DNA of 58,176 nucleotides, filler included, from Dimargaris cristalligena (taxonomy: Eukaryota), in assembly GCA_003614675.1 (NCBI GenBank). It is 3 parts of 3 records of this genome, joined end to end, with 100 filler letters (N's around TTAATTAATTAA, not from the genome) between each part and the next. Parts side by side here need not be neighbours in the genome. Positions count along the whole stretch, not along the records: positions 38,913 to 58,176 come from ML002731.1; 2 more parts are not named here. One strand, 5' to 3'. Shown one piece after another: positions 7,440 through 46,940 of this stretch. Each line of letters begins with the position of its first letter. The stretch's first letter is position 1. The notes under the pieces were generated by a model. That model did not search any database. It worked only from the letters and a program-made list of their open reading frames with translations, and was not told where the DNA came from. The translations under genes were made by a program, and so were the position numbers.

Positions 7440-9001
7440 TTAGGCCGTCACCGTCTCGTCCACCTTGGCCTTCTTATTAGCCTCGCCGTTGGTGGCAGCC
7501 TCAGCAGACTCGTCGGCTTCATTCGTCTCTGACGTCCGCTTAGCCTGTGGGGAACCGGGGGTCGATTCGCCGTGGATCTCGGCATGGAACTCACGCAGTA
7601 GCTGATCAACAGCATCGATGGAACGGGGCCGGATGTCGGCGAGGGCCTTGATTTCGGCAGTGACCTTCTTGACCTCCTCGTCGGTGAGCGTCAGGCCCAG
7701 TTGCTGCACACGGTTCTTCACGGCGTTCCAGCCGGTCAGACGGTGACCAATGGACACGTACCGGGTCATGCCAAAGTCCTCGGGCTTCAGGATTTCGTAG
7801 GTGCTGGGGTTGTTGAGGATGGCCTTGGCGTGGATACCGGCCTTGTGGGTGAAGGCACAGTAGCCCGTCACGTAGTTGTTAAAGGGCACCTGGACCTCAA
7901 CGGCGTCGGCGATCAGATTCTCCACGTCGCGCAGCTTATGAAGCTTGTACTTGCCCATGACGTACTCGCGGTCGGTAGCGTACATGCGAGCCACCAGACC
8001 ACCCAAGGGAGTGATACCGTTGCGCTCACCGATACCAAGCACGGAAGTGTCAATGTGGGTGGCACCGGCCTCGAGGGCAGCGTGGGCATTGGCAATAGCG
8101 CAACCGGTATCGTTATGGAAATGGCACTCAATGTCGCAGGATACGACGCCGCGCAGGGTGCGGACCAGCTCAAATACCTGGTTGGGGGTGGCGCAGCCGA
8201 CGGTGTCGGCAATACCCACACGGTTCACACCCAGCTTGTCCACGGTCTTGTAGATACTGAGCAAATCGACCAGGTCAGACCGGAAGGAATCCTCGGTCGA
8301 AAAGCGGACTTCGAGACCCTTGGACTTGATAAAGTTAATGACTTCGGTGGCCTGTTTGGCAATATAGTCCATGTCCTTGCCATGGGAGAATTCGCGGAGC
8401 AGCGACGAGGTACCGATCACCACGTCGAGGCCGTCCACACCGGTTTCGACGGCGATGCGAGCGTCGTCCATATGGCAGCGGGTGTGGGTAAGGATCTTGG
8501 CCTTCAGACCGAGGTTGGCAATGGCGATACAGTCCAGGCGGGACTGCTCGGAAGCGGCCGGGGAGGTCAGCTCAAGGTATTCCACGCCAAAGTCGTCCAG
8601 GGCCTTGGCGATCTCGATCTTCTTGGCGGTATCAAAGAAGGCATTGGCAAACTGCTCGCCCTCTAATAATCAAAAAGGGGGGAGAAACCAAGGGGGAGAG
8701 GGGAACACGTGAAACCACGAAAAGAGAGGTTAATTAGGGAGGGTTTAGGAAACGGGGGGAGGGGCATATAGTCCAACTCTAAGTCGAGGAGAGGGCCACA
8801 ATCAGGTGGGTCTGGGTGGAGAGGATCGGAGACCTGGATTGAACTGCAGCCAGAGTAGGAGTTGGTCTGCGGAACTCACGGGGGAGCATACTTACCGCGC
8901 AGGGTGGACTCGATAATGGAGAAGTTGCTCACCCGACTGAGGAATTCGGAAGGAACATAGTGGGGGTTGAAGCTATGGGGTCCGCCGTTGGATTTGGTCA
9001 T
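7440..9001 (-). CDS. LYS20: Homocitrate synthase (first step of alpha-aminoadipate lysine synthesis); 2 exons (9001-8896, 8662-7440)
   Basis: Spliced [18 protein letters not shown], plus [50 protein letters not shown]. Confidence 0.97.
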
Positions 9002-15343: not shown

Positions 15344-17566
15344 TTAGATGTCACACCCGGACGGCACAGCGTAACTATTGATCCGAATGCCCAACGCATT
15401 CGTAGCCCGGGTTCCCAGTCCCCGTTTCGCAAACCCGCGCCAAATGGCACACCTATATTTCCCACCATCAATTGCCTCCTCTGCCTGCACCAGCGCGTCC
15501 CGCGCGGTTAAAAACGTTGGCGCACACGGCTGAATTTTCAGTCCGCCCAAAATATACTTAAACATCAGCACGTTCCCTTTTACCGACGCCACTTGATTCA
15601 AATTGGATTCAAACCCCGCGGCCTCCACCACATTCCACAGCACCTCATAGAGCATGGTGGCCCACACTTCGCCCGCCAAATGTTCTTCCCACCACGCCGG
15701 GTAGTTGAGGTAGCTGTAGCGGTGGGGGTTCATTTCATCCGAGGTGGAATACAGTTTGGACCGGATGCCTTCGCTAGACCCCGAGGCGTACGCCCCAATG
15801 GGATAATTGGTGAACCGGGTGTCCGAGGCTTTGAGCTTGAACAGGAGGGCGAAGAAATCGCTCCAGCCTTCGCCCAGACCTTTGGCTTCGCCGACGGCGA
15901 GACAGTTGCTGTTGTCTGCGCCGCCCGTCAGACGCGTCGTGACGCCGTGGCTGTACTCGTGGATGATGAGGTCCGAGTCGAAGTCGCCGTCGCGTTTGGG
16001 GTTGGTGCGGGTGTAGGGGTCGATTTTCATCATGGGATGAACGCCGTCGGGTGGGCAGTAGAAGGACGAGTTATTGGTCCTAAATCAGGGGGGAAACAGG
16101 GGATGTAGTATAGACCATGGGAGAGATGACCAGGTCGAAAGGAAATACTAGTATCAAAAAGGGTTAGTCTTTCGTGATTCTGCGGGCACAGGGTCCTTCA
16201 TCCCATTCAATCTCCAACCACGGTCCAGCCAATTATCTGTTAAGCTACACCAGATCAAGCACATCAGAATATACATATAAAAAGCCGTTTCACACACACA
16301 TACTTACTTATCTCCGCTCTGGGCCATCGCAATCATCGCGTCACTCCTCTTACCCCCCTTATCGAAATTATTATCCTGGAAATTACCGGCCGTTTACGTA
16401 AACCCGTAGTGGTAAAATACATCATGGGCCATGTTAGTCCAATAGAACAAATTCACCACTGCCGCGTCCTGGTACCCCGTCGGATGCTTGGCCAAATCCA
16501 CGGGAAAGTCAAATACGCGGTTACCGCCACCGGACGGTCGTTTCTTAGCGGCCCAATTTCCGTCGCCCGCGACATCCGCTTGGGCGTACACGTTATTGCC
16601 CCGGGTTTCATTGATGGCCTTTTCGAACTGATTGTCGTGCTAGCCGTAGGGGGACGCGGTGCGGCTATAGGGGTCAACTAGCCGGCTGCGGGTGCCGGCG
16701 AGGGGACTGCCGTAGCCCAAAGGGAAGACGTGGTACGTGGCGTGCGATTTCCAACTGACGAGCGCGATGAGTTGGCCGGTTCGGCGGGAGACGTGGCCGT
16801 TGACCCAGTCGTTGGGGGTACGCACGGAAATTTCCCAGACCGCTTCGAGGTCGCCGGATGGGCTGATGATATGGGTGCGAAGGGCTTGGGTCTCGCCGAG
16901 GGTACCGGGGATACGGTGGAATACGTGGGAAGGGGAAGGACCAGCTAGCCTATCCGACCCAGGCTTATTACCGAAGTTTCGGTCCCTGGTCGTGGAAGCA
17001 TTCCCCAGAAATGATGAACCACCCCTATTCGCCTTGGGGGGATGGCCCAAATGAGTTAGCACCGTATAGACGGCATCCAGGGGATTAACCTCCGCTGATA
17101 TAAAGCCCAGCTCCGCTTCGCTGGAAGTTTCCGTATCGGTAATCGGGTGCTGGCCACTGGGAGCATTTAGGAATATCGAGCCGTAGGACAGGATACTGCC
17201 GTCGGGTCCGATATTGACATTCATGTTGGCATTACTAATTTCCTCCCCATGGTGCAGCTGGCGCAGGTAAACGTGGGTGAGTCCCGTATTGGTGTCAGTA
17301 TGGTGACTCTTGACCACCACCTCGTCTTGCGGTAGTCTGTACTGGTCTGCAGCAAATTGGATGGCCCGGGTCATGAGCTCAACGGGTACGAACGAGCCGC
17401 CGGGGGAAGTGGTGACCAGGGAGTCAATTTCGGGTGGGTTGATGATAAATACCGCATGCTGTAGGGTAGGGGTAAAATACAGGTTGGTGGAATTAGTTGC
17501 CCGAGCGACAGGCGCTACTGCACCCATAGCCAGACAGGCAAGAGCTAGAATTCCGATGGCCCGCAT
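15344..17566 (-). pseudogene. Fungalysin (peptidase M36) with two in-frame stops; 2 exons (17566-16308, 16079-15344)
   Basis: Signal peptide, FTP propeptide (TGLTHVYLRQLHHGEEISNANMNVNI), TRGNNVYAQ, NLFYWTN, HEYSHG zinc motif, GEGWSDFFA. TAG at 16640-16642 falls in SPYG[W]H and TAA at 16394-16396 falls in YGFT[E]xAGNFQ. The frame is otherwise preserved. Confidence 0.85.
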
Positions 17567-18846
17567 TATCTAAACCACTTTATGGTTGGATTTCACGAGT
17601 GGGAGGATGCACTAGGATGACTAGTGTAGCCTAAAAATATATATAGCTTCGCAGAATTATAAAAGAGCAAATAAATAGGACCCTTTGGATTCAAGGGTAT
17701 AAAGGTTTCAATCCGGTTTTCTTTCAGCGACATGGTAGGCTTAAATATACGGGGGCTGGGCGCATCTCAGGAGCTACTACCCCCCGGATATTAAATGACG
17801 GAAACATGTCAACACCATTCGAAGCGCATATGATACTCATCCACAAATGAATATAAAAAATTACGATCCCCCAGTATCCTTGCTTTATGAATTGTTGGGG
17901 GGGGGGGGAAGCACCTGTCGGGTGTTTAAGGGATATCTCCTAACATTCCAACTAAAACCACGACGCTTGGCGTTCTGGTGTATTATCCCATGCCATTAAA
18001 GTTCATAGGCATAGCATGTAGGAGTTACGATCTTATTCTTCACAGCTTAAGGGATGGACATAATCCTCCATCCTTACTTCCAGTCCCTTGACGGGACCCA
18101 TTGCCCCTACACTTTTTGCCCTATTAATGGGACTGTCGAAAATCTAATACTAGTAAGCATCAATGTCACTCTTAATAGCGTTTCGGTAGTCTATTTTCGG
18201 AAGAACACACATCCATATGAGTTATTTTAAAAAGCACAGGAGCGCTTTCATACTATTGGTGCTTGCATTGGCTCGCTAGCATTAGCACTACGCCTTTATA
18301 TACATTGGGTTTGCTTTTGTTTTTTTATTATTATTGCCTATAAATTGGCTATTTGGCGGAACACGGGCAAGGATAATGCCGAGTCCAATCCAATTGTTGA
18401 CAGCGCTCATGGGTTGCTTGTATCCACGACTACGGTTGCATTGGCACGGTTGATCAGGTGGTTTAAAATCATGGAATGCTCAGGTCTAAGGGGAGAAGGT
18501 AAGGCACGTGTGAGGTCTCGTATAATGGGCTACCATCTGAACCTTAAGCACAGACCCTAATGACCAACTGAATGCTACCGACAGTGTCCCAAAACCGCCC
18601 GGGCTTTGCCGGTCATAATGATGACCCAGAAATACCTGTCATGCTATAAATAAAGTCGCAAGATCTCGGGAATAGACATTCAAAAATTTATTATAAAAAC
18701 TCTAATTAAAATATCCGTAGCCAATGTATGGCTAGGCCAGCTAACTAATAGGTGAGTGTGCGAGCAAAAGTGCCCTAGCCCCATAGATGAAGTGATAAAA
18801 AGCAAGAATGGTCGAATAGAAAGAGTATATTAATGGCTTAAGCCTT

Positions 18847-34343: not shown

Positions 34344-36008
34344 AGTGATGGTTGCTTTAGGGGCAGTAGAGGGGTACTGGGCGGGGGGTCGTGTGCGGTA
34401 GAGAATGAGGGGGTTAGGGCTGAGGAACAGGACAGAAAGGCTGGTTACGTAGTCAAGTCGAGTCCAAGGAAACAGGATAGAATGAGCAGAGGGGTAAGTC
34501 CTAAAAAGACGGCTAAAGAAGGGGGAAATAAGTGGGGAACAAACCGGAATGCAAATAATACAGAAGTGGGAAACAACCAAGAAGAGAATGAATGCCTTCG
34601 CTTGTAGTCTGGGAAGGGTAAGGGTGGCGGCCGAAGGAGAGAACCCCACTGTAGGGCAGGGCGGGGGACTGGGCTGAGAAGGGGAGGAGGTACCAGTATA
34701 GGTTTTACCTGGAAGGCGGGGTCAATTGCTTGGGTATTGCGCACCCCGCCAACTCCAACAACAACAACTCTCCACTACTTGGGTTAGTCATGAAACATCA
34801 TAGATGTAATTATAATCATGGCCAAGGTCATAGAAAGGAAGCCTCTATGACTATGACTAACACCTTGGAGGGTTTTTGAGCCATCTATCCTTTCATATGT
34901 TCCCTGTGGATGGCAAATTATGACCAAAAGGTCGCCTGCCTTAGATTATTCACTTTAAATAAAACTCTACTTCATCTGACTATGACTAACTAGGGTGACG
35001 GCCGCATTCAGTCTGGCCACAACTTAGCTATTCCGAGGTTTGGTCGGTCATGTGACCTATGCTATCGCCACGGCCTTCCCAGGCAGAATGGGTAAGTAGA
35101 TAGGGATAAGCCCCCTTACTTTTCTAGATCAAGGGTTAGGGTTAGGCCAACTAACCGCGGCGACTTGCAAATACCAAGCCCGACGGACCGTCCGTCAACT
35201 CCCGCCTGCGAGATAGCTGCCGGGTGCATTCGACGGGGCCAGGGAGAGAAACTTACTTAATATTCCTCCTCCCTTCTGTTGATCGACCGCACGCAATGGT
35301 CCAGCAGCAGCCGTGGATTTTCCACCCGCCCCAGCGGGGTTGGCAGTAAAGCAGAAGGAGGAGGAAGTGTCATAAGAGCATATAGCATAGAGCCAGAATG
35401 GCAATGTTAATGCATGCATACAGCCGGACGGGAGGTATCCCCCCCATATCACTCACAGGGCTTGTACGACGGTTCCCTCGGGCCTTTCCGCTTACACTTC
35501 AGCAACTCCCACCCTCACACTTCTGAACCGCCCGGCTGCGTCGGCCTCAAATACCCTTGGCCTCCTCTTCCTCCCTCCTCTTCTCCTCCTCTTTCTTTCC
35601 TTTCCTTTGCTTTGCTTTGCTTTCCTTTCCGTTCCGTTCCTTTCGTTCGCTCGTTTGCTCGCTTCTTCTTCGCGCGCGCCTTTTTATTCCGGTTTAGTCC
35701 GCCCTTTACTTCTTATTAACTATAGTAGTCTCCGCTTCACTCCCCTGTGGCTTCAGCTTCTCCCTTGGCTCACTCAACTCCCGATCCCCCACCAATTCAG
35801 CATAAGCTCCCCTCATAGCACACCCCACCCCTTGGCCTGCTATCCACACCACTCCTTGCTGATTTTTTTCACCCCTCAACTTTTAATAACCCTCATACGT
35901 TGACGTGTGGCCGCCCATAGCCCCTTTTTTTCACTCCCAGCCCGGCTTTTTTATTTTTACCACTCCCCCTAACCCCTCCTTTCTCTTGCCCGGTATCTAT
36001 TTATTAAT

Positions 36009-37277
36009 ATGGCCACTTTCGCTTACCCCGAACAAACCCAGGGCGCCGCCCCCGTGTCTGCCCCCTCTCCCGCCGCCGGTGCCTCCCCCGTGGCCGAGAG
36101 CAACCCCAAGGCCACCCTGTGGATGGGTGATCTGGAGCCCTGGATGGATCAAAACTACCTGCGCACCACCTGGTACAACATGGGCGAACAGGTCAATGTC
36201 AAGACCATCTTCAACCGCTCCACCGGTACCCCCGCCAACTACTGCTTCATCGAGTTCCCCGAGGTGAACGCCTGCTCCAAGGCCCTGGCCACGTACAACG
36301 GCACCTATATCCCCGCCACCCAGAAGATCTTCCGCCTTAACTGGGCCACCGGTAACCAGCCCGGGGGAAGCCCCACCGCCGGCCCCGTCGATGCCCACGT
36401 TGCCCCCGAGAAGCCCACCGACTTCCCCATCTTCGTGGGCGATCTGGCCCCCGAGGTTAACGACTATCTGCTCCTGACCACTATCCAGGCCCGTTTCCCC
36501 TCGTGCCACACCGCCAACGTCAAGGTCGACACCCGCACCGGCGTGTCCCGTGGCTACGGATTCGCCCGTCTCACCGACGAGGGCGAGTACCAGCGTGCCC
36601 TGATTGAACTCGGCGGCCTCCAGATCGGCTCCCGGGCTATCCGCGTGTCCACCGTGACCCCGTCCGCCCGTCGCGGTCCCCCCAACGGCTACTACCCTCC
36701 CGCCGGCCCTTACGGCCACTACCAGGCCCAGGGTATGCCCAACGGTGCTATGGATCCCAGCAACACCACCGTCTTCGTTGGTGGTCTGGTTCAGCCTGTC
36801 ACTGAAAATGATCTCCGCCAACACTTCCAGAGCTTTGGCGTGATCACTCACATCAAAATCCCCCAGGGCAAGGGCTGCGCCTTTGTCCAGTTCCAGCAGC
36901 ACCCCCAGGCCGAAATGGCCATTGCCCAACTGAACGGTACCCAGCTCGCTTCCTCCACCATCCGCCTCTCGTGGGGCCGTGGCCACAACGGTAACCATAA
37001 TGCCGGTGCCCAGCCCTACCATCCCCACCCTCACCACCACCATCAGCAGCAGCAGCCCCCCCACTACGGCCGCATGAATGGCAACGGCTACTACCAGCAG
37101 CACCGGGGTGGTCATTACCCTAATGCCAATGGCGGTGGCTTCCGTCCCCCCCACCGGGAGCCCGGCCAGCATATGCCCATGGATGGCTCGAACCAGCCCT
37201 ACCCCCAGGAAAAGGATAAGAATATGGAGGCCATGAAAAACGGCAACGGATTCAACTCCTACGGCGTGCAGGCCTAA
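36009..37277 (+). CDS. Three-RRM RNA-binding protein of the Nam8/Ngr1/Csx1 (SECp43-related) family
   Basis: TLWMGDLEPWMD, YCFIEF, FRLNWA, IFVGDLAPEVND, SRGYGF, DPSNTTVFVGGL, GKGCAFVQF, IRLSWGR. Confidence 0.92.
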   Translation: MATFAYPEQTQGAAPVSAPSPAAGASPVAESNPKATLWMGDLEPWMDQNYLRTTWYNMGEQVNVKTIFNRSTGTPANYCFIEFPEVNACSKALATYNGTYIPATQKIFRLNWATGNQPGGSPTAGPVDAHVAPEKPTDFPIFVGDLAPEVNDYLLLTTIQARFPSCHTANVKVDTRTGVSRGYGFARLTDEGEYQRALIELGGLQIGSRAIRVSTVTPSARRGPPNGYYPPAGPYGHYQAQGMPNGAMDPSNTTVFVGGLVQPVTENDLRQHFQSFGVITHIKIPQGKGCAFVQFQQHPQAEMAIAQLNGTQLASSTIRLSWGRGHNGNHNAGAQPYHPHPHHHHQQQQPPHYGRMNGNGYYQQHRGGHYPNANGGGFRPPHREPGQHMPMDGSNQPYPQEKDKNMEAMKNGNGFNSYGVQA

Positions 37278-38812
37278 AGACTCGCTCTTTCTCGCATCCT
37301 TCCCTGATCTGTAAAAATGATTGTCCCTAGTGTCCCCTTCTCTTTTATTTACCCTCCGCTCCGCTTTCCTACCATGTACTGCAGGCAGTGTCAATATCTT
37401 ATCCACCTCCCGTTTGCCTTTACTCTTTCCTCTCAACAATTTTTTTTCGGCATTCTTTCTCAACTTCCCCTCCTCCCAATCCTTCCCGCTTCATTCCATT
37501 ACCTTTGGAACTGCTGGCTGGCTGCTTGTGTGGATCAGGCAGGCCCCCCGCCTCTGTTGCACTCCCCTCTCCCCTAATCAGGTGAATAATCATTCTCTTT
37601 CAGATCAGATCCTACTTCAACCCTATCATTTCCCCGACCGCTCCCCACATCATCAGACGTTTCCTCATGTCCAGCCCCCCTATTTCAGTGTTTTTTTATA
37701 TATATTATATATTCTACGAACTCGTATACTTCTAAAAGCGTGCCCCTTGACTCGGCCAGCATCATATCTGGCTTGATCTCCCGTAACTTTAGATCATCGT
37801 TGAATATTGTGGATCAAGTCATCTTAATTCACCGCTAGGCTATCGGGACATGCACTCCAATCATGAGCCGATCCTTAACCAGGCTCTTCCGAATCGACTC
37901 TTCCTTTTTTTGAACTTACCATTTGAACATACTTTCCGCTTCCTCGTTGAAATATTTCCGTGTGTATTTTCGGCTTCTCTTGCCCTCTTTAATCGTATAC
38001 ACTTAATATTATTTTATTCCACTGGGATACACTATTATTCACGGGACCCCCCCCCTGTCGATTGCCCCCAGACGTGTTAATCCCTGGAACATAATGTTGG
38101 GACTTGCCTTCTGAAATATCCCAGTCAGGACAAGTTAGGTAGATCAATTGGGGCAGGCAAACTGGAACTGCCCCCATTTCGTCCAAGGAACAAATATATT
38201 ACACAGACTACCCCAGTTAGATCATCAAAACTGGGCCTATATTAGGCGAATTCTACAGGCAAGAGGGCTCAGTGATGCCCATTTGCTGGAGGCTTGGTTG
38301 TTGAGGAAACCGATTAAAATAGCCAAGAACGTCCATTAAAAACACCAATAGCTTTAGGGATGTATAGCAGTCGACCAATTAAAGAGAACTGAACAACCCC
38401 TGTCCATCTCAAGAATATATAAATAGCGCACTAGGATGCCCTTTTTTCTATGGTTATCAATTGTAGCGGGGTGAAAGAATAATGATTGCCACAGTGGTTT
38501 AACATCTTATTATTAACTCCTATTATATGAAAAGAGTTCAGCCAATCGAGCTGCATATTTATCATGATTTATTTATATAAAGAAGGGGTACAAAACAAGG
38601 CCAAAAAGCATCTACGACAACGGATTAAATAAAACTGAAAATTAAATAAAAGGGAATGGGGCACTATAATAACCAAAATGCATTAGTTTACTAACAAAAA
38701 AAGGACGGGTGGATTTGGCTGTCAAACGCAAACCAAAAACCACTGAGAGGGGGCGCGTAACAAAAGGGGATGGCTAAAAAGCCCGCAAACAACTACATAC
38801 CCCCAAAATAAA

Positions 38813-40296: not shown

Positions 40297-42377
40297 GTAC
40301 ATGTAGGTGCTGGTTTATCCCATTTCGAATGGCCGTGTTTATTAGAAGAGCAGTTGGGCAGAGTCCTAACATTTGTAAAGATTCAAGGTGGGCATTGTTT
40401 CAGAAGGCATGGGAACAAGATAGGTCCTTGGGATTATCCATAACAGAAAGGAATGCCAAATGGGATAACGTCTGGGATTTTTTTTTGAATGGAGATGTAG
40501 TCGTCAGCCTAAGCCTGGGAGATGTGACTGCTGCCCGGTGGAATTAAATTCATCGTATTTGATTTATTGGATTTTTAAGTACATCTGGTATGGTGTGGTG
40601 GTAATTTTTGGCCAAATTGGGAAACCCCAGTCCCTTCCCCATCAGCTTATCTAGAACTTACTTTTAATCCTGGGCGGTTGAGTAAACGAAGCATAGAGGG
40701 CAGCCGTCACCAAGTGTGAAGATCTCCAGTAAAATCTCATCCACTTGAGGTGGACTGTGTTAGTCAGGAGTAGAGAGGTAAAGCGTCTTCAACCCACCCA
40801 TTAAACGGCGCCCATTTTGCGATGCTTTGTTTAACTGTAAACTGGTGTAAGTGAAAAGTGGGGTTCGAAGTAGCATTCGGTATTACAGTCAATGCCCGTC
40901 AAAACAATACGTGCAATAAATGGGTCAAGTTTTTTTTATAGAAGAAAGGCCAGCCTTAAAGACACCGGCACAAGCCGGCCCACGGAGAAGTCCGGAGGTA
41001 CCTGGTTTATTTTATCACTGGGGCTTTAAATTCCACGAATATCCATATATTGCAGAGAGCGGAGCAGGCCACCTTGGGCATATTATAAACATACGCGCGG
41101 CACTATTGCGTCAGTGGCGATACTGGTTGTTTCCTCCGAGATTTAAAGAGGTGAAATATCCGTACGTTGTAACGTCCACTGGCATAATCCAGCCGAAATT
41201 AAAGAACGGATCTATTGAACCTGGCATTAATACAAACCGGATGTAGCGGCCCCACTTCCAGTGGATTAGGGGGGTGGTTGACAACTTTATTCCGCTGGGG
41301 GTCGGGTCATTTATTGCTAATTGTCGGATAAATGTGAGGGGCAGAACTTTATGTCCAATTCCCCAGGTATTGCCTAGTGGTAAAAGTACATGCTATACCC
41401 TCGGTTAGAGAGGGGATCCCAAATGACTACATTGGGCCATTCAGTAGAGATGGGGTGACCACGAGACTCTCTATCTACTTTATTTTCCCCAAAGGGTCGA
41501 TCCAGCTCGATGGTAGGGAAGAGTCACAGTTAAATATATATATATCGTCCGCCTTGCTCGACTCCCCTGAGGCTAGCTCGTTCTTATCTTATAGATGGTA
41601 TTGTATACGTGCCTTTTATTACCCCTCCGAACTTCAAGGTAAGTCAGTTATCTACTTTGAATTCAGTACAGTTCGTCTTAATATTGGTTACTGGTGACCA
41701 CTCCTTTCTGCCCCCCGGGCGTGGTCGTGGGGGATTACGGAGTGAGACTTCACCGGCTGTTTTGCTGCTAAATCAAACCTACTTCATCTGAAATGGTATC
41801 CTGCGGACAAACTGCACTCCTTCGGCCAGGAACCCGGAGGAGCTTCGTGGTGAGTCATGCTGGGAGGGACTGTCCTTGGGGTTGTGGCCAGTGTATACCT
41901 CTGCGTAAGACTATTGGGCAGCTACTGTGGTTGGTGGCCTCTTTTTCATTTCAGCCTCTAGCATTCTTTTCGCCTGACCAGCAGCGGCCGCTTATTACCA
42001 AGCTCACCGTCGACGAGAGAATAGCTAACAGGTTTATCCGAGGAATATATTATCTAGCCTAATATACAAGCGAGAGAGTGTTCACAGATAGAGCTCTCTA
42101 CACCCCCCGCTCAACGGCCCTTTTCCTATTTTCTTCTACTTTTACTTTTATCAACTTACTTGGGTCCTTAACTATAACCACTTCCACCTTTCTGCTAATT
42201 ACCCCTGCCGTTATTCTCTATCGTCTATATCTCCTCCATTGGTAAAGCCCTGCTTGCTATCCTAACCCACCTACCTGTATTTTGGCACTAGGTTTAACCA
42301 ACTCCAGCTCCCCAGAAACAGTCACACCTCCTATATCCCCCCCTCCACGTTCCCACTCGTGTGTATCGCCCTGAACA

Positions 42378-43808
42378 ATGACCGTGACTTCCCCCACCAA
42401 GGCCCAGACTTCGGCCTCAGCTGCCTGGTCCACCATTCCCACTTCCTCTATTGCCCGTAACACCCTCAATCCCATCCGAGTCGTGGTCGAGAAAATGCAA
42501 GCTAGCCGTGCTGCCCACACCAAAGGCGGCTCCTCCTCTTTAGATGGTCCGACCCAAACTCCCATCAGTCTGTCCATTGGCGACCCTACCGTCTTTGGCA
42601 ATTTCAATACCCATCCCGAAGTCACCAAGGCCGTCCGCAAGCAACTGGACAGTTACCGGGCCAATGGCTACGGTCCGTCCTACGGCCTACCCGTGGCCCG
42701 CGAAGCCCTGGCCCTCAAATATTCGACCCCGGAAGCCCCGCTCTCGGCCAACGATGTGATTCTAACTAGCTCCTGCTCCAGCGCACTCGAAATGACCGTG
42801 AGCTGCCTGGCCGACGTTGGTCAAAACATTCTAATCCCCCGCCCTGGTTTCTCCATGTACAAGACCCTGGCCCTGTCGAAACAACTAGAGGCCCGTGAGT
42901 ACCGCCTGTTGCCGGAGCGCCAGTGGGAAATTGATTTAGATCACTTCGCCTCGCTGATTGACGACCGTACCGCTGCCGTGATCTTGAACAACCCGTCCAA
43001 TCCCTGTGGATCCGTGTTTTCGCGCTCCCATTTGGAGGCTATTTTGGCCATCTGTGAACACAAACGCGTACCCATCATTTCAGATGAAATCTACGCCGAT
43101 ATGGTCTTCGATTGCCCCAGTACCGAAGGGGTTGAGAGCGAAGATACCCACAGCCCTAGAACAACAGGAACTACTACCACTGCCAACAATACTACGGTCA
43201 ACAACACAAGAACAGCTGCTACTACTACCACCACCACCGACACCAGCAACCAGTTCCATGCCCTGGCCCAGCTGACCCACACGGTGCCGATTTTGACGGT
43301 GGGTGGACTGGCCAAACAGTGGCTCGTCCCCGGCTGGCGGGTCGGTTGGATTCTTATCCACGACCGCCAGCAGCTATTCAGCCAAGTCCGCCGCGGTCTT
43401 GAAGCGCTGTCCACCCTCATTCTCGGCCCCAACACCGTCATCCAGGCCGCGATTCCGGATATCATGACCAAAGTCCCCCCCAGTTTCCTAGCGGATACCA
43501 TCCGCCGCCTGTCCATCCACGCCCGCGCTTGCGAGCGCCGACTCAGCCAAATCCCCGGTCTGCAGGTTGTGGTTCCCCAGGGCGCCATGTACATGATGAT
43601 TGGGTTGGATATCCCGAATTTCACCGGCATTCAAGACGATGTGGACTTCGCGTCCCGACTCAACTTGGAGGAATCGGTCGAGGTGCTCCCCGGCCAGTGT
43701 TTTAACTACCCCAACTTCTTCCGGATTGTGCTGACCCCGCCGGTCGACAAGCTCGAAGAAGCGTGTAATCGAATTGCCCGGTTCTGTAACCGGTACTACA
43801 TGCAATAA
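42378..43808 (+). CDS. TAT: Tyrosine aminotransferase (class I PLP, TAT family)
   Basis: ISLSIGDPTVFGN, NGYGPSYG, NILIPRPGF, NNPSNPCGSVFS, IISDEIY, PLP-Lys motif GGLAKQWLVPGWRVGW, PQGAMYMM, LPGQCF..PNFFRIV. Confidence 0.94.
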   Translation: MTVTSPTKAQTSASAAWSTIPTSSIARNTLNPIRVVVEKMQASRAAHTKGGSSSLDGPTQTPISLSIGDPTVFGNFNTHPEVTKAVRKQLDSYRANGYGPSYGLPVAREALALKYSTPEAPLSANDVILTSSCSSALEMTVSCLADVGQNILIPRPGFSMYKTLALSKQLEAREYRLLPERQWEIDLDHFASLIDDRTAAVILNNPSNPCGSVFSRSHLEAILAICEHKRVPIISDEIYADMVFDCPSTEGVESEDTHSPRTTGTTTTANNTTVNNTRTAATTTTTTDTSNQFHALAQLTHTVPILTVGGLAKQWLVPGWRVGWILIHDRQQLFSQVRRGLEALSTLILGPNTVIQAAIPDIMTKVPPSFLADTIRRLSIHARACERRLSQIPGLQVVVPQGAMYMMIGLDIPNFTGIQDDVDFASRLNLEESVEVLPGQCFNYPNFFRIVLTPPVDKLEEACNRIARFCNRYYMQ

Positions 43809-44295
43809 CTTTCTGGTTGCTTGGGCTTTATTTATGTATGGCATGGTTCCAACCTTTCAACTTTGCCTTTACCTTTACCTTTATACGCCTATTCTTCCCC
43901 CACGATGTCGGTTCCCTTTACGCTCTATTCATTTGCATGTGCGAATAAGCCCCCAGGATAATTCTTAAACATAGTTGCTAACGCTGATATTGCCGGAGCT
44001 ATACTTATATATAATCTAATCAATTCATATATCCCCTTGTTACATACATACTCCATTTACTATCGATACTGCTGTGAGTTCAATTAGAAGTTAAATGATG
44101 CGGAAATGAATAATCCATCCCTAGAATCTAGTTCCACCGTGGGGGGGGGGGTGTTCTCCTTGGCTCTTTTAGATATTAGTCGATCGTCCCAGCTGAAATA
44201 GTTGGTAACGAGTTTTTCAAAAATATTCATTCACTTCTCTGTTTCTTCCACATTTCACATACTGCGGGGTTCTTTTTTCACTTTATGTAATAGGC

Positions 44296-46344
44296 ATGCC
44301 TCAATCCAGGTAAGCGCCATTCCAAATCGCGGTTCCCTTGGGCTTGTTGAGGATTACCTTCCCCAGCCAACACTTGACCCATGGTCCTTTGGCATCCCTG
44401 TAGGGCTCGGCATACTAGGTTTATAAGGAGCTCTACCGTGTCCTCTATTTATATATATATATTCCGTCACGCTAATGACCCATTGTCACTCCTCTCCCTT
44501 TTTATGCCCATCGAACCCAGCCCGACTCAGCAATGGACCACTCTGCTATGCGGCTATTTAAAGTCGCCTCTCGTCATAGTTCCCAGTGAGACTTTAGGCC
44601 AATCCGGCTCATCGCCCAACCCTCGTAAGTCCCAATAGAAGTCCAAGCCTCTTTTACCCGCCCTCTCGCTGTTGTAAGCGGACTTCCCCCACAGCAGTTC
44701 AATGTAAATCCCCTGTAAGAGGTATTTCTCATGCTTACTTCATGTTATATGCCGAAGCCTGCTTTAGGCTACACGTACTTCATGATGGAAATTTAATATA
44801 ACTGTATATGATCTCTATTGCTGATCGTATCGAATGATCGTTGACGCGTAACCCTGTTGGTGCATTTGGGCAAATGTATTGGCCTCGGTACTAGCCTCAC
44901 CCTTGCCTCAGGTCGTGTCTTGTCTTGGGTTTATAGCTCGCACAAAAGTACCAGTGCTGTGCGCGAAATATAACTACCGACTTCATGTCCCTGATGCTCT
45001 ATCTTCCAAGGTAAGGCATCGCTCCAGAAATCCCTGAATAACGGCATCATCCTATTATGTCAAGTATCGAGGCTGAGTTGATAACACTTGGGCACCTATT
45101 GGAGTGGGTTGCTTAACCAGTATCGCCCCACCCCCACGGCCAGGTGGGAACCGGTCAATTATACCATGTATTAATAGGGTGATCACTGTCTTGTACCTTT
45201 CATAACCGCTTAATTTAATCCAGAGCACTTTATTTTCGACGATCCGTGATAGCATGTATGAATCAGACCTAGTTGGTATTGTTTCTTTACAGACGAACTG
45301 GTATGGGGTATTAGCCCTAGCTCCCGAAACAGCTACCGGTAAGTTCACATAGTCAAAGGCCGCGCGGTCGCTTTATTGGATTTATATTAGCCAGAATTCC
45401 GGCGTTCCATCCTTTGCCCAACTCAATTCAACGATGCGTTTCATCTAATTCCCCTCAATACACCTACACCCAAATATACATGCACATTTACACTCGTTGA
45501 TATACCGCCATGCTCTTGTATTGGTGGTCTTCAAATACCAATTCCATATAGAACTGCGGCTAATGGCCTTCCCCTTCGATACCACCATCGGGGACGCTCT
45601 ACCCTACCTTGAAGTCTATGACCCCAATATTACGCTGGCCACACCATTATCACCTGCACATACTCGCCCGACCGACTACCTTCTTGACCCCGACTCGGCT
45701 GTAAGTAACATTAATAGTGAATAGCGGGTGCTCCTACCTGTAGCACCAATATATATATATATTGTAAATAGAGTACCGGAGACCGCAGCATAGGAGGTTC
45801 CCACACCTCTCTCGTTTCTAATTCAGACACAATTTCCTTGATACTGCGTTATCATTGCCATGTCAATTTTACTTTGACTTGGTTGGTGTTCTACAGATCC
45901 CCACCGTAAATCGTTTAACTGAATTGCTTCCAGTTAGCCTGGGTGAACTGGAATCGGTCCTAACCGATTTACAGGAGGCCGTGGTAGCCCATCGGTATGG
46001 TCAGCTTGTAAAATACGTCAACACTCAATTAAAAACTAAGATACGGTAAGTGGGGTTCCAAAGGTTATACTAATTTAATTATGATGGGGTATTTTACAAC
46101 GGCTAACATTAGCCCGAATCGCTAATAATACATAAATGTGTGCTAGTTTCTCCCTATATTACCCATGCCACTCGCCTCTAGCTCACTCTCTTCTCTACCC
46201 GAGCAATGCCATTCCATTGAAGCGCTTCGCCAACGATTTCTCAGCCAATGTGGGGAAATGGCCAAAGGGATCGAAGATGAAGAACAGCCGCAGCCCATTC
46301 AGACGAGATCATCCCGAGTGTCGCTCAGCAGCCTGCTCAATTAG
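44296..46344 (+). CDS. Putative divergent Integrator subunit 14 (INTS14/VWA9)-like protein, 269 aa; 7 exons (44296-44309, 44521-44624, 44895-45010, 45224-45338, 45552-45700, 45897-46045, 46182-46344)
   Basis: All six donors are GTAAG, all acceptors YAG, and phases close to 810 nt. Colinear motifs LLCGYLKSPLVIVP, CLGFIA..PVL, DSMYESDLVGIVSLQTNWYGVL, LRLMAF..LPYL, LTDLQEAVVAHRYGQLVKYV resemble INTS14 as I recall it. Confidence 0.65.
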
Positions 46345-46709
46345 TTGGGGTTAGTATGTTATACCCCCAACTCTTTATGTGAAATCAGACTCTCCATGGC
46401 CATCCAAGCCAATGCATTGCCATTTACGGGGGACAATATATATATATATATATATTTGCGATTTATTTACAAGACACAAATTTTAAGAAGATTTCTCAAT
46501 AAAATCCATTGGATGAACAATATATAAATAAACTGGGGAACTCCATAATGGGCTAACCAAAGACTCGGGCAATAGCCCAGCTAGAGCTAACGTATACCAG
46601 TGTCCTATTTTAGAGGTTAGTCTTTGGTAGAACTAAAGACATCCATCATATTCAACCGGTAAAACGTCCAAATAATGATAGCTAGCGGTGGCGACTCGCA
46701 TGGATAGAC

Positions 46710-46940
46710 TTAATGACTGTACTTCTTGTCGGCAGCATGGCCGATAAGAGCACCCCCAAGGGCACCAGTCTTGCCTAAAGTGAAACCGCCAGCAGCAGCT
46801 CCCCCGAGGGCGAACTTGTTTCTGGTAAAGATATTGCGGCGGTGAAGGGTGGCCTGGGTCTCAGCGGGGTTCTGGGCAGTAGCGGCCGAGGCAGCGAGAA
46901 CGACGGCGAGAAGGGCAATGGGGGTCAGGAAACGGGCCAT
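46710..46940 (-). CDS. Secreted prepro-peptide (76 aa): signal peptide, LHRR Kex2-type site, cationic glycine-zipper mature peptide
   Basis: ACCATGG start; hydrophobic IALLAVVLAASAATA; dibasic RR; GGAAAGG..GALGGALIG. Minus-strand TATAAA at 47071-47076. Confidence 0.8.
   Translation of the reverse strand: MARFLTPIALLAVVLAASAATAQNPAETQATLHRRNIFTRNKFALGGAAAGGFTLGKTGALGGALIGHAADKKYSH

Follow-up and report, generated by a model that had tools for sequence, protein, structure and literature searches.

A seven-exon gene for a vWA-less protein of predicted INTS14-like architecture in the mycoparasite Dimargaris cristalligena

Dimargaris cristalligena is a mycoparasite of the order Dimargaritales (Kickxellomycotina), and the stretch of 58,176 nucleotides analysed here from its genome assembly (GCA_003614675.1), hereafter the window, carries at 44296-46344 on the plus strand a gene whose seven exons, 810 nt in total, splice in phase into a protein of 269 amino acids (aa) followed by TAG. 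The protein is without an N-terminal vWA/MIDAS domain, and the description that suits it best is that of a new variant of the Ku/INTS13/INTS14 fold from which the vWA part is missing, so far from the Dimargaritaceae only. On balance, we favour the view that it belongs to a fast-evolving family of the Dimargaritaceae with the architecture that follows the vWA domain in INTS14, and that INTS14 is the nearest known protein; true homology, dimerisation and a connection with Integrator are inferences that go beyond this. The protein is not classed as a bona fide INTS14, because it has no vWA domain and no Pfam match and its place within a complex is conjectural.

The sequence shows the gene to be genuine, protein-coding and rich in introns, with signals far beyond chance. 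All six donors of the seven-exon model read GTAAG and all six acceptors AG, the exons have a G+C content of 50.4% against 43.7% in the introns, and the introns are 136-270 bp long. An earlier note on this DNA had called the gene hidden, and the stop-to-stop open reading frames (ORFs) on the plus strand at 44296-46344 are indeed all short, with a maximum of 91 aa; the gene was, however, already public as two shorter 'hypothetical protein' models, namely RKP36026.1 (P0001; 196 aa), the model of the Joint Genome Institute (JGI), and KAJ1979858.1 (P0005; 247 aa). The in-phase splicing set out in that note was reproduced at its exact length, and the product is collinear end to end, across all six junctions, with KAJ1968114.1 (P0003; 263 aa) from Dispira parvispora, a member of the same family, Dimargaritaceae, and the only full-length ortholog. 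Residues 12-269 align with residues 7-263 of this ortholog (84 of 265 positions identical, or 32%; 15 gaps; 106 bits; E 4e-32), and each of exons 2-7 contributes to the alignment. The same comparison gives 91.7 bits with 38 gaps for KAJ1979858.1 and 63.2 bits with 36 gaps for RKP36026.1. Because it reaches the highest bit score with the fewest gaps, and because it includes a conserved extension of exon 4 as well as exon 7, the seven-exon model of 269 aa is the best available and better than both public annotations.

The exons of this model, all on the plus strand, differ in how they relate to the ortholog and to the public models. Exon 1 (44296-44309) consists of the ATG and 11 further nucleotides before the donor GTAAGC, and the same exon is used by RKP36026.1; the ortholog alignment gives it no support, one of its four residues being aligned. 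KAJ1979858.1 begins instead (MPIEPS) with an in-frame ATG within 'intron 1', at 44504, and either of the two may be the true start. Exon 2 (44521-44624) is common to both public Dimargaris models and carries the conserved N-terminal motif TLLxGYLxSPxxxVP, which forms the first barrel strand in the ortholog's predicted model; 13 of its 30 aligned residues are identical to KAJ1968114.1. Exon 3 (44895-45010; acceptor tactag/CC) holds VVSxLG, has 8 of 38 aligned residues identical, and is the same in RKP36026.1 and KAJ1979858.1. For exon 4 we adopt the long form (45224-45338), the public models taking a later acceptor at 45293 and so being without 23 aa; against KAJ1968114.1 this extension shows 6 identical and 14 positive positions and a BLOSUM score of 32, which was reached by none of 10000 shuffles. 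The acceptors of exons 3 and 4 had initially been chosen partly by resemblance to INTS14, and they now have independent support, the former from the public models and the latter from ortholog conservation. Exon 5 (45552-45700), whose translation matches RKP36026.1 at 100%, covers the last predicted barrel strand, bears the motif LPxxTxxGDAxxYL and opens a predicted unstructured linker (17 of 43 aligned residues identical). Exon 6 (45897-46045) encodes the first predicted helices of the C-terminal domain and the motif HxYGQLV (17 of 49 identical). Exon 7 (46182-46344), which KAJ1979858.1 also uses, ends in the TAG at 46342-46344, aligns without gaps to the ortholog (22 of 53 identical), and carries FLSxCGE and the invariant C-terminal decapeptide SRVSLSSLLN. 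RKP36026.1 instead begins its last exon at 46113 and runs through three codons (PNR) to an early stop at 46123-46125. A consensus-like branch point, CTAAC, lies in the 46102-46112 region, only 6 nt 5' of the AG at 46111-46112 that the JGI model uses; the next AG (46145-46146) does not keep the phase, and the coding frame that is conserved starts at the third (46180-46181). (TA)n microsatellites were also observed in intron 1 (44450-44462), in intron 5 (45750-45762) and just 3' of the stop codon (46436-46456).

A phmmer search with RKP36026.1 against 1.84 billion representative proteins returned only the query itself and a protein of Dispira simplex (E 2.2e-11), whose 90% cluster also includes KAJ1968114.1 and a second D. 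simplex copy. Both D. simplex models (P0002 and P0004) end exactly at the position of the Dimargaris exon 6/7 boundary, which suggests a conserved intron and the same annotation error. The two are near-identical 208-aa copies on separate contigs (24,384 and 52,348 bp) and may represent a recent duplication or two haplotypes. By these comparisons four of the five public models in the family appear truncated or mis-spliced, that of D. parvispora alone seeming full-length. Between the genera, KAJ1979858.1 and KAJ1968114.1 are 34% identical. Concerning further relatives, a profile search near query length in a set of 5.8 billion proteins gave the family itself only, and a metagenome scan with the family profile produced 195 pattern matches, none of which was confirmed by tblastn. 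By sequence, the family is therefore confined to the Dimargaritaceae, and it is evolving fast. Rapid sequence evolution in Dimargaris has been observed in ribosomal RNA genes, as the available text of PMC6784888 describes, and it is a plausible reason for the blindness of sequence methods here. The case also indicates that genes with short exons and long introns are systematically under-annotated in these genomes.

A vWA domain comprises about 200 aa. Upstream of the gene there is no room for one, because a complete tyrosine transaminase gene leaves only 487 bp (43809-44295, plus strand) between its stop codon (43806-43808) and the ATG, a measured distance that agrees with the figure of fewer than 500 bp given in the earlier note. 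The upstream ORF (42375-43808) covers positions 4-361 of the 361 of the Aminotran_1_2 profile, as expected of a complete gene, and is identified as tyrosine transaminase by TIGR01264 at 497.4 bits against an equivalog cut-off of 474.25. No vWA or other credible Pfam match was found in the eight ORF pieces of the 487-bp stretch at E up to 10. The three Dispira models all start at the homologous residue, and no longer or fused relative turned up when 8000 candidates were scored in a profile search. The stretch also contains a run of ten G at about 44144-44153, within the putative promoter.

The resemblance to INTS14 lies only in fold and in language-model features. With KAJ1968114.1 as the query, the top match by ESM Atlas features was the cluster of the INTS14 families PF19435 (IntS14_b-barrel) and PF20504 (IntS14_C), with 207 of 256 features shared and a score of 0.95, a value that shuffled proteins reach about once in 100; INTS13 clusters followed (0.89 and 0.88), and then Ku clusters (0.86-0.77). 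A structural comparison in the same resource, using the Atlas's own ESMFold model of this ortholog, gave the INTS14 cluster a template modelling (TM) score of 0.59 over 216 residues, and Ku rows 0.40-0.45. KAJ1979858.1, which is without the 23 aa of the exon 4 extension, had the same INTS14 top match (0.88, 170 features), followed by Ku (0.85) and INTS13 (0.84), its recognition value being low. When an AlphaFold2 (AF2) model of KAJ1968114.1 was compared with the PDB by Foldseek, the three matches at E up to 0.001 were all INTS14 chains (6sn1_B at 6.6e-6, 9eoc_B at 2.6e-5 and 8pk5_B at 3.3e-5), and ranks 4 to 50 as listed were Ku chains in all but one row, from 2e-3. The aligned INTS14 range, 222-492, starts just past the published vWA boundary at 210/211.

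In this AF2 model strands occur between residues 17 and 117 and helices at 155-247 of the ortholog, those at 155-208 lying in blocks with a mean predicted local distance difference test (pLDDT) of 61-91, whereas residues 130-153 have pLDDT below 50 and are almost without secondary structure, showing a single bridge residue and the first part of a helix. A Ku-type beta-barrel is thus present at fold level in the predicted structure, whether it is taken as that of INTS14 (PF19435) or as that of Ku; a helical C-terminal domain after the linker appears in the low-confidence AF2 model. In order, the prediction has a compact Ku-type beta-barrel (residues about 15-120), some 30 residues of unstructured linker, and five helices that make up the C-terminal domain. 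Since the three predictors, which are independent in part, and the two orthologs, diverged as they are, converge with INTS14 always first, membership of the Ku/INTS13/INTS14 fold group is in our judgement quite likely on these models, and we incline, with distinctly more reserve, to INTS14 as the true nearest relative.

Several results weigh against this kinship with INTS14. INTS14 itself was not recovered by any sequence or profile method used. Scans with hmmscan against Pfam at E up to 10, with the six exon translations and P0001, P0002, P0003 and P0005 as queries, gave no match to INTS14 (PF19435, PF20504), INTS13, Ku (PF02735) or vWA; phmmer and two profile searches of the PDB sequences, a set that includes human INTS14, gave nothing related to INTS14 or Ku and only unrelated weak matches (best E 0.085); and the NCBIfam scan of KAJ1968114.1 returned 0 families. 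The AF2 model of KAJ1968114.1 is of low confidence (pLDDT 57.7, predicted TM score 0.44), and its Foldseek matches have TM-scores of only 0.22-0.25 at a root-mean-square deviation of about 22 Å, which points to mis-oriented domains or a poor model. With KAJ1979858.1 as the first sequence the model was weaker still (pLDDT 48.8), residues 1-139 being unfolded, and the best Foldseek match was again 6sn1_B but at E 0.15, none being found at E up to 0.001. The shared-clan heuristic of the ESM Atlas was likewise unfavourable, the 'other' families in question being INTS13 and Ku, whose folds are regarded as homologous in the structural literature (available parts of PMC7347597 and PMC11377751). In a wide search by VIA-align generic helical repeats dominated, and a two-copy prediction of KAJ1968114.1 scored 0.00 against a mark of 0.32, a result obtained without controls or an alignment and counted neither way. 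The resemblance to INTS14 proposed in the earlier note is consequently borne out in part: it holds for fold and language-model features, where INTS14 came top in four tests, and fails for sequence and profile methods, and the structural check that the note had suggested placed INTS14 at ranks 1-3 with the ortholog, from a model of low confidence, and only at E 0.15 with KAJ1979858.1.

These weaknesses leave room for other explanations, of which the one that survives best is that the protein belongs to the Ku superfamily and is unrelated to Integrator, being a lineage-specific, stripped-down paralog of Ku70/Ku80 (or of M1AP) that has lost its vWA domain. Such a protein would work like the barrel-only Ku of prokaryotes; it might pair with itself at DNA ends or serve some other function on nucleic acids. 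We regard this origin as unlikely, given that INTS14 stands above every Ku in four rankings (0.95 against 0.86 and 0.88 against 0.85 by features, TM 0.59 against 0.45, and Foldseek 6.6e-6 against 2.0e-3), that INTS13 too stands above Ku for KAJ1968114.1, and that the Pfam Ku model gives no match.

The resemblance could also be spurious, the protein being an orphan of the Dimargaritaceae whose beta-then-alpha layout is drawn by low-confidence predictors and a language model to the nearest known architecture, and whose true fold and function have no relation to Ku or INTS14. This seems to us a little less probable again, as the ESM features, the Atlas ESMFold model, AF2 with Foldseek, and two orthologs that are 34% identical agree on the family; the matches listed below INTS14 (for Foldseek, all but one) are INTS13 and Ku and not scattered folds, and the domain order, the linker and the starting point coincide with those of INTS14 after its vWA domain. 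The last of these coincidences is also what a split gene would give, in which the vWA half of an ordinary INTS14 is encoded elsewhere and joins non-covalently, for the protein begins exactly where the INTS14 vWA domain ends. No data point to such an arrangement, which we hold to be very improbable: the start is conserved in the three Dispira models, and no fused form occurs among the 8000 candidates. Finally, although support for the junctions comes from conservation rather than from transcripts, the notion that chance splice signals and open frames only mimic a gene is effectively refuted by the ortholog match at E 4e-32 across six junctions, the invariant decapeptide and two independent public annotations.

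If the protein is indeed INTS14-like, published work on the human complex offers a model for its function. Human INTS14 residues 211-518, which are without the vWA domain, keep INTS13 binding and lose that of INTS10, which docks on the MIDAS pocket, according to the available text of PMC7347597. In addition, a basic patch on the helical domain of INTS14 is part of a composite site for peptides that this subunit builds together with the barrel of INTS13, as described in the accessible part of a preprint (bioRxiv 10.1101/2024.01.24.576984). Because the same part of human INTS14 suffices for INTS13 binding, the fungal protein would most likely pair with an INTS13-like partner in an entwined dimer of the Ku type. 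By analogy, nucleic acid or peptide ligands would find a composite surface on such a dimer, which would be unable to recruit an INTS10-like arm; a candidate motif for docking is the invariant SRVSLSSLLN at the C-terminus. A function in Integrator is plausible, though conjectural. More specifically, it can be speculated that the Dimargaritaceae retain a stripped-down Integrator 'arm', a Ku-like heterodimer of the vWA-less INTS14 and an unrecognised, equally diverged INTS13-like protein, with INTS10 docking lost, or else that the protein forms a barrel-only homodimer like prokaryotic Ku; we put this pair of proposals forward as a tentative possibility.

Reviews and structural papers present Integrator as absent from yeasts (available text of PMC7347597). 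In the window, no Integrator family was found in the 19 ORFs scanned of its 30 ORFs of at least 150 aa. In the literature consulted, no statement was found on Integrator in Zoopagomycota, Kickxellomycota or other early-diverging fungi: a term look-up did not find 'Integrator' in PMC10406608 or in preprint 10.64898/2026.10.14.759114, and the available portions of PMC8091971 and PMC7471841 do not address Integrator in early-diverging fungi. An INTS14-like protein without the INTS10-docking domain would provide a handle on the way in which Fungi took apart the Integrator arm module or gave it a new use, and also on what the barrel-plus-helical core of INTS14 can do alone. Were the Integrator-arm proposal true, RNA polymerase II termination control of the Integrator type would have persisted in a fungal lineage long after its loss in Dikarya and would have escaped notice through extreme sequence divergence; were the homodimer alternative true, the family would represent a eukaryotic reversion to a minimal Ku architecture.

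The surroundings of the gene were also surveyed. A small convergent ORF on the minus strand (46710-46940) begins MARFLTPIALLAVVLAASAATAQ, which is signal-peptide-like, and continues into a Gly/Ala-rich tail; from its sequence it may encode a small secreted protein. Further away, a fungalysin M36 metallopeptidase with an FTP propeptide is encoded on the minus strand at 15344-17569 (E 4.9e-88 and 3.1e-10), and a secreted protease of this kind could be relevant to a mycoparasite. The other genes scanned in the window, between 1668 and 58176, are ordinary, including those for a THAP4-like heme-binding domain, aldehyde dehydrogenase, homocitrate synthase, an NT-C2 protein, an arrestin-fold protein, two RRM proteins, a mitochondrial-type ribosomal protein S11, an EH-domain protein and the splicing factor cwf18. 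At 7440-8669 and at 35973-37490 a long ORF of one strand overlaps one of the other, with a Pfam match on one strand of each pair; at 35973-37490 the minus-strand ORF was scanned and had no Pfam match, and at 7440-8669 the plus-strand partner (7602-8666) fell outside the scan. Rfam and tRNA scans of the window found nothing.

Among known systems the closest counterpart is INTS14 (VWA9; human structures 6SN1, 8PK5 and 9EOC, chain B), whose order of Ku-type barrel, long linker lacking secondary structure and C-terminal helical domain is also the one predicted for the fungal protein. Unlike the fungal protein, INTS14 carries the vWA/MIDAS domain and with it the INTS10 docking site, its barrel and linker take up about 180 residues against about 134, and its Pfam/HMMER models do not match the fungal protein. 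INTS13/Asunder (PF10221, Mat89Bb) follows the same three-domain Ku-like plan and gives feature scores of 0.89 and 0.88 with KAJ1968114.1 and 0.84 with KAJ1979858.1; it is, however, much longer, carries besides its vWA domain a C-terminal motif for binding to the cleavage module, as stated in the text available of PMC7347597, and is outscored by INTS14 in each test. M1AP (meiosis 1 arresting protein), proposed in the accessible part of PMC11377751 as a fourth human Ku-like paralog, also carries a vWA domain, and it appears in none of the match lists of this analysis. Ku70/Ku80 (PF02735) and the barrel-only Ku of prokaryotes score below INTS14 throughout, and the Pfam Ku model has no match to the fungal protein.
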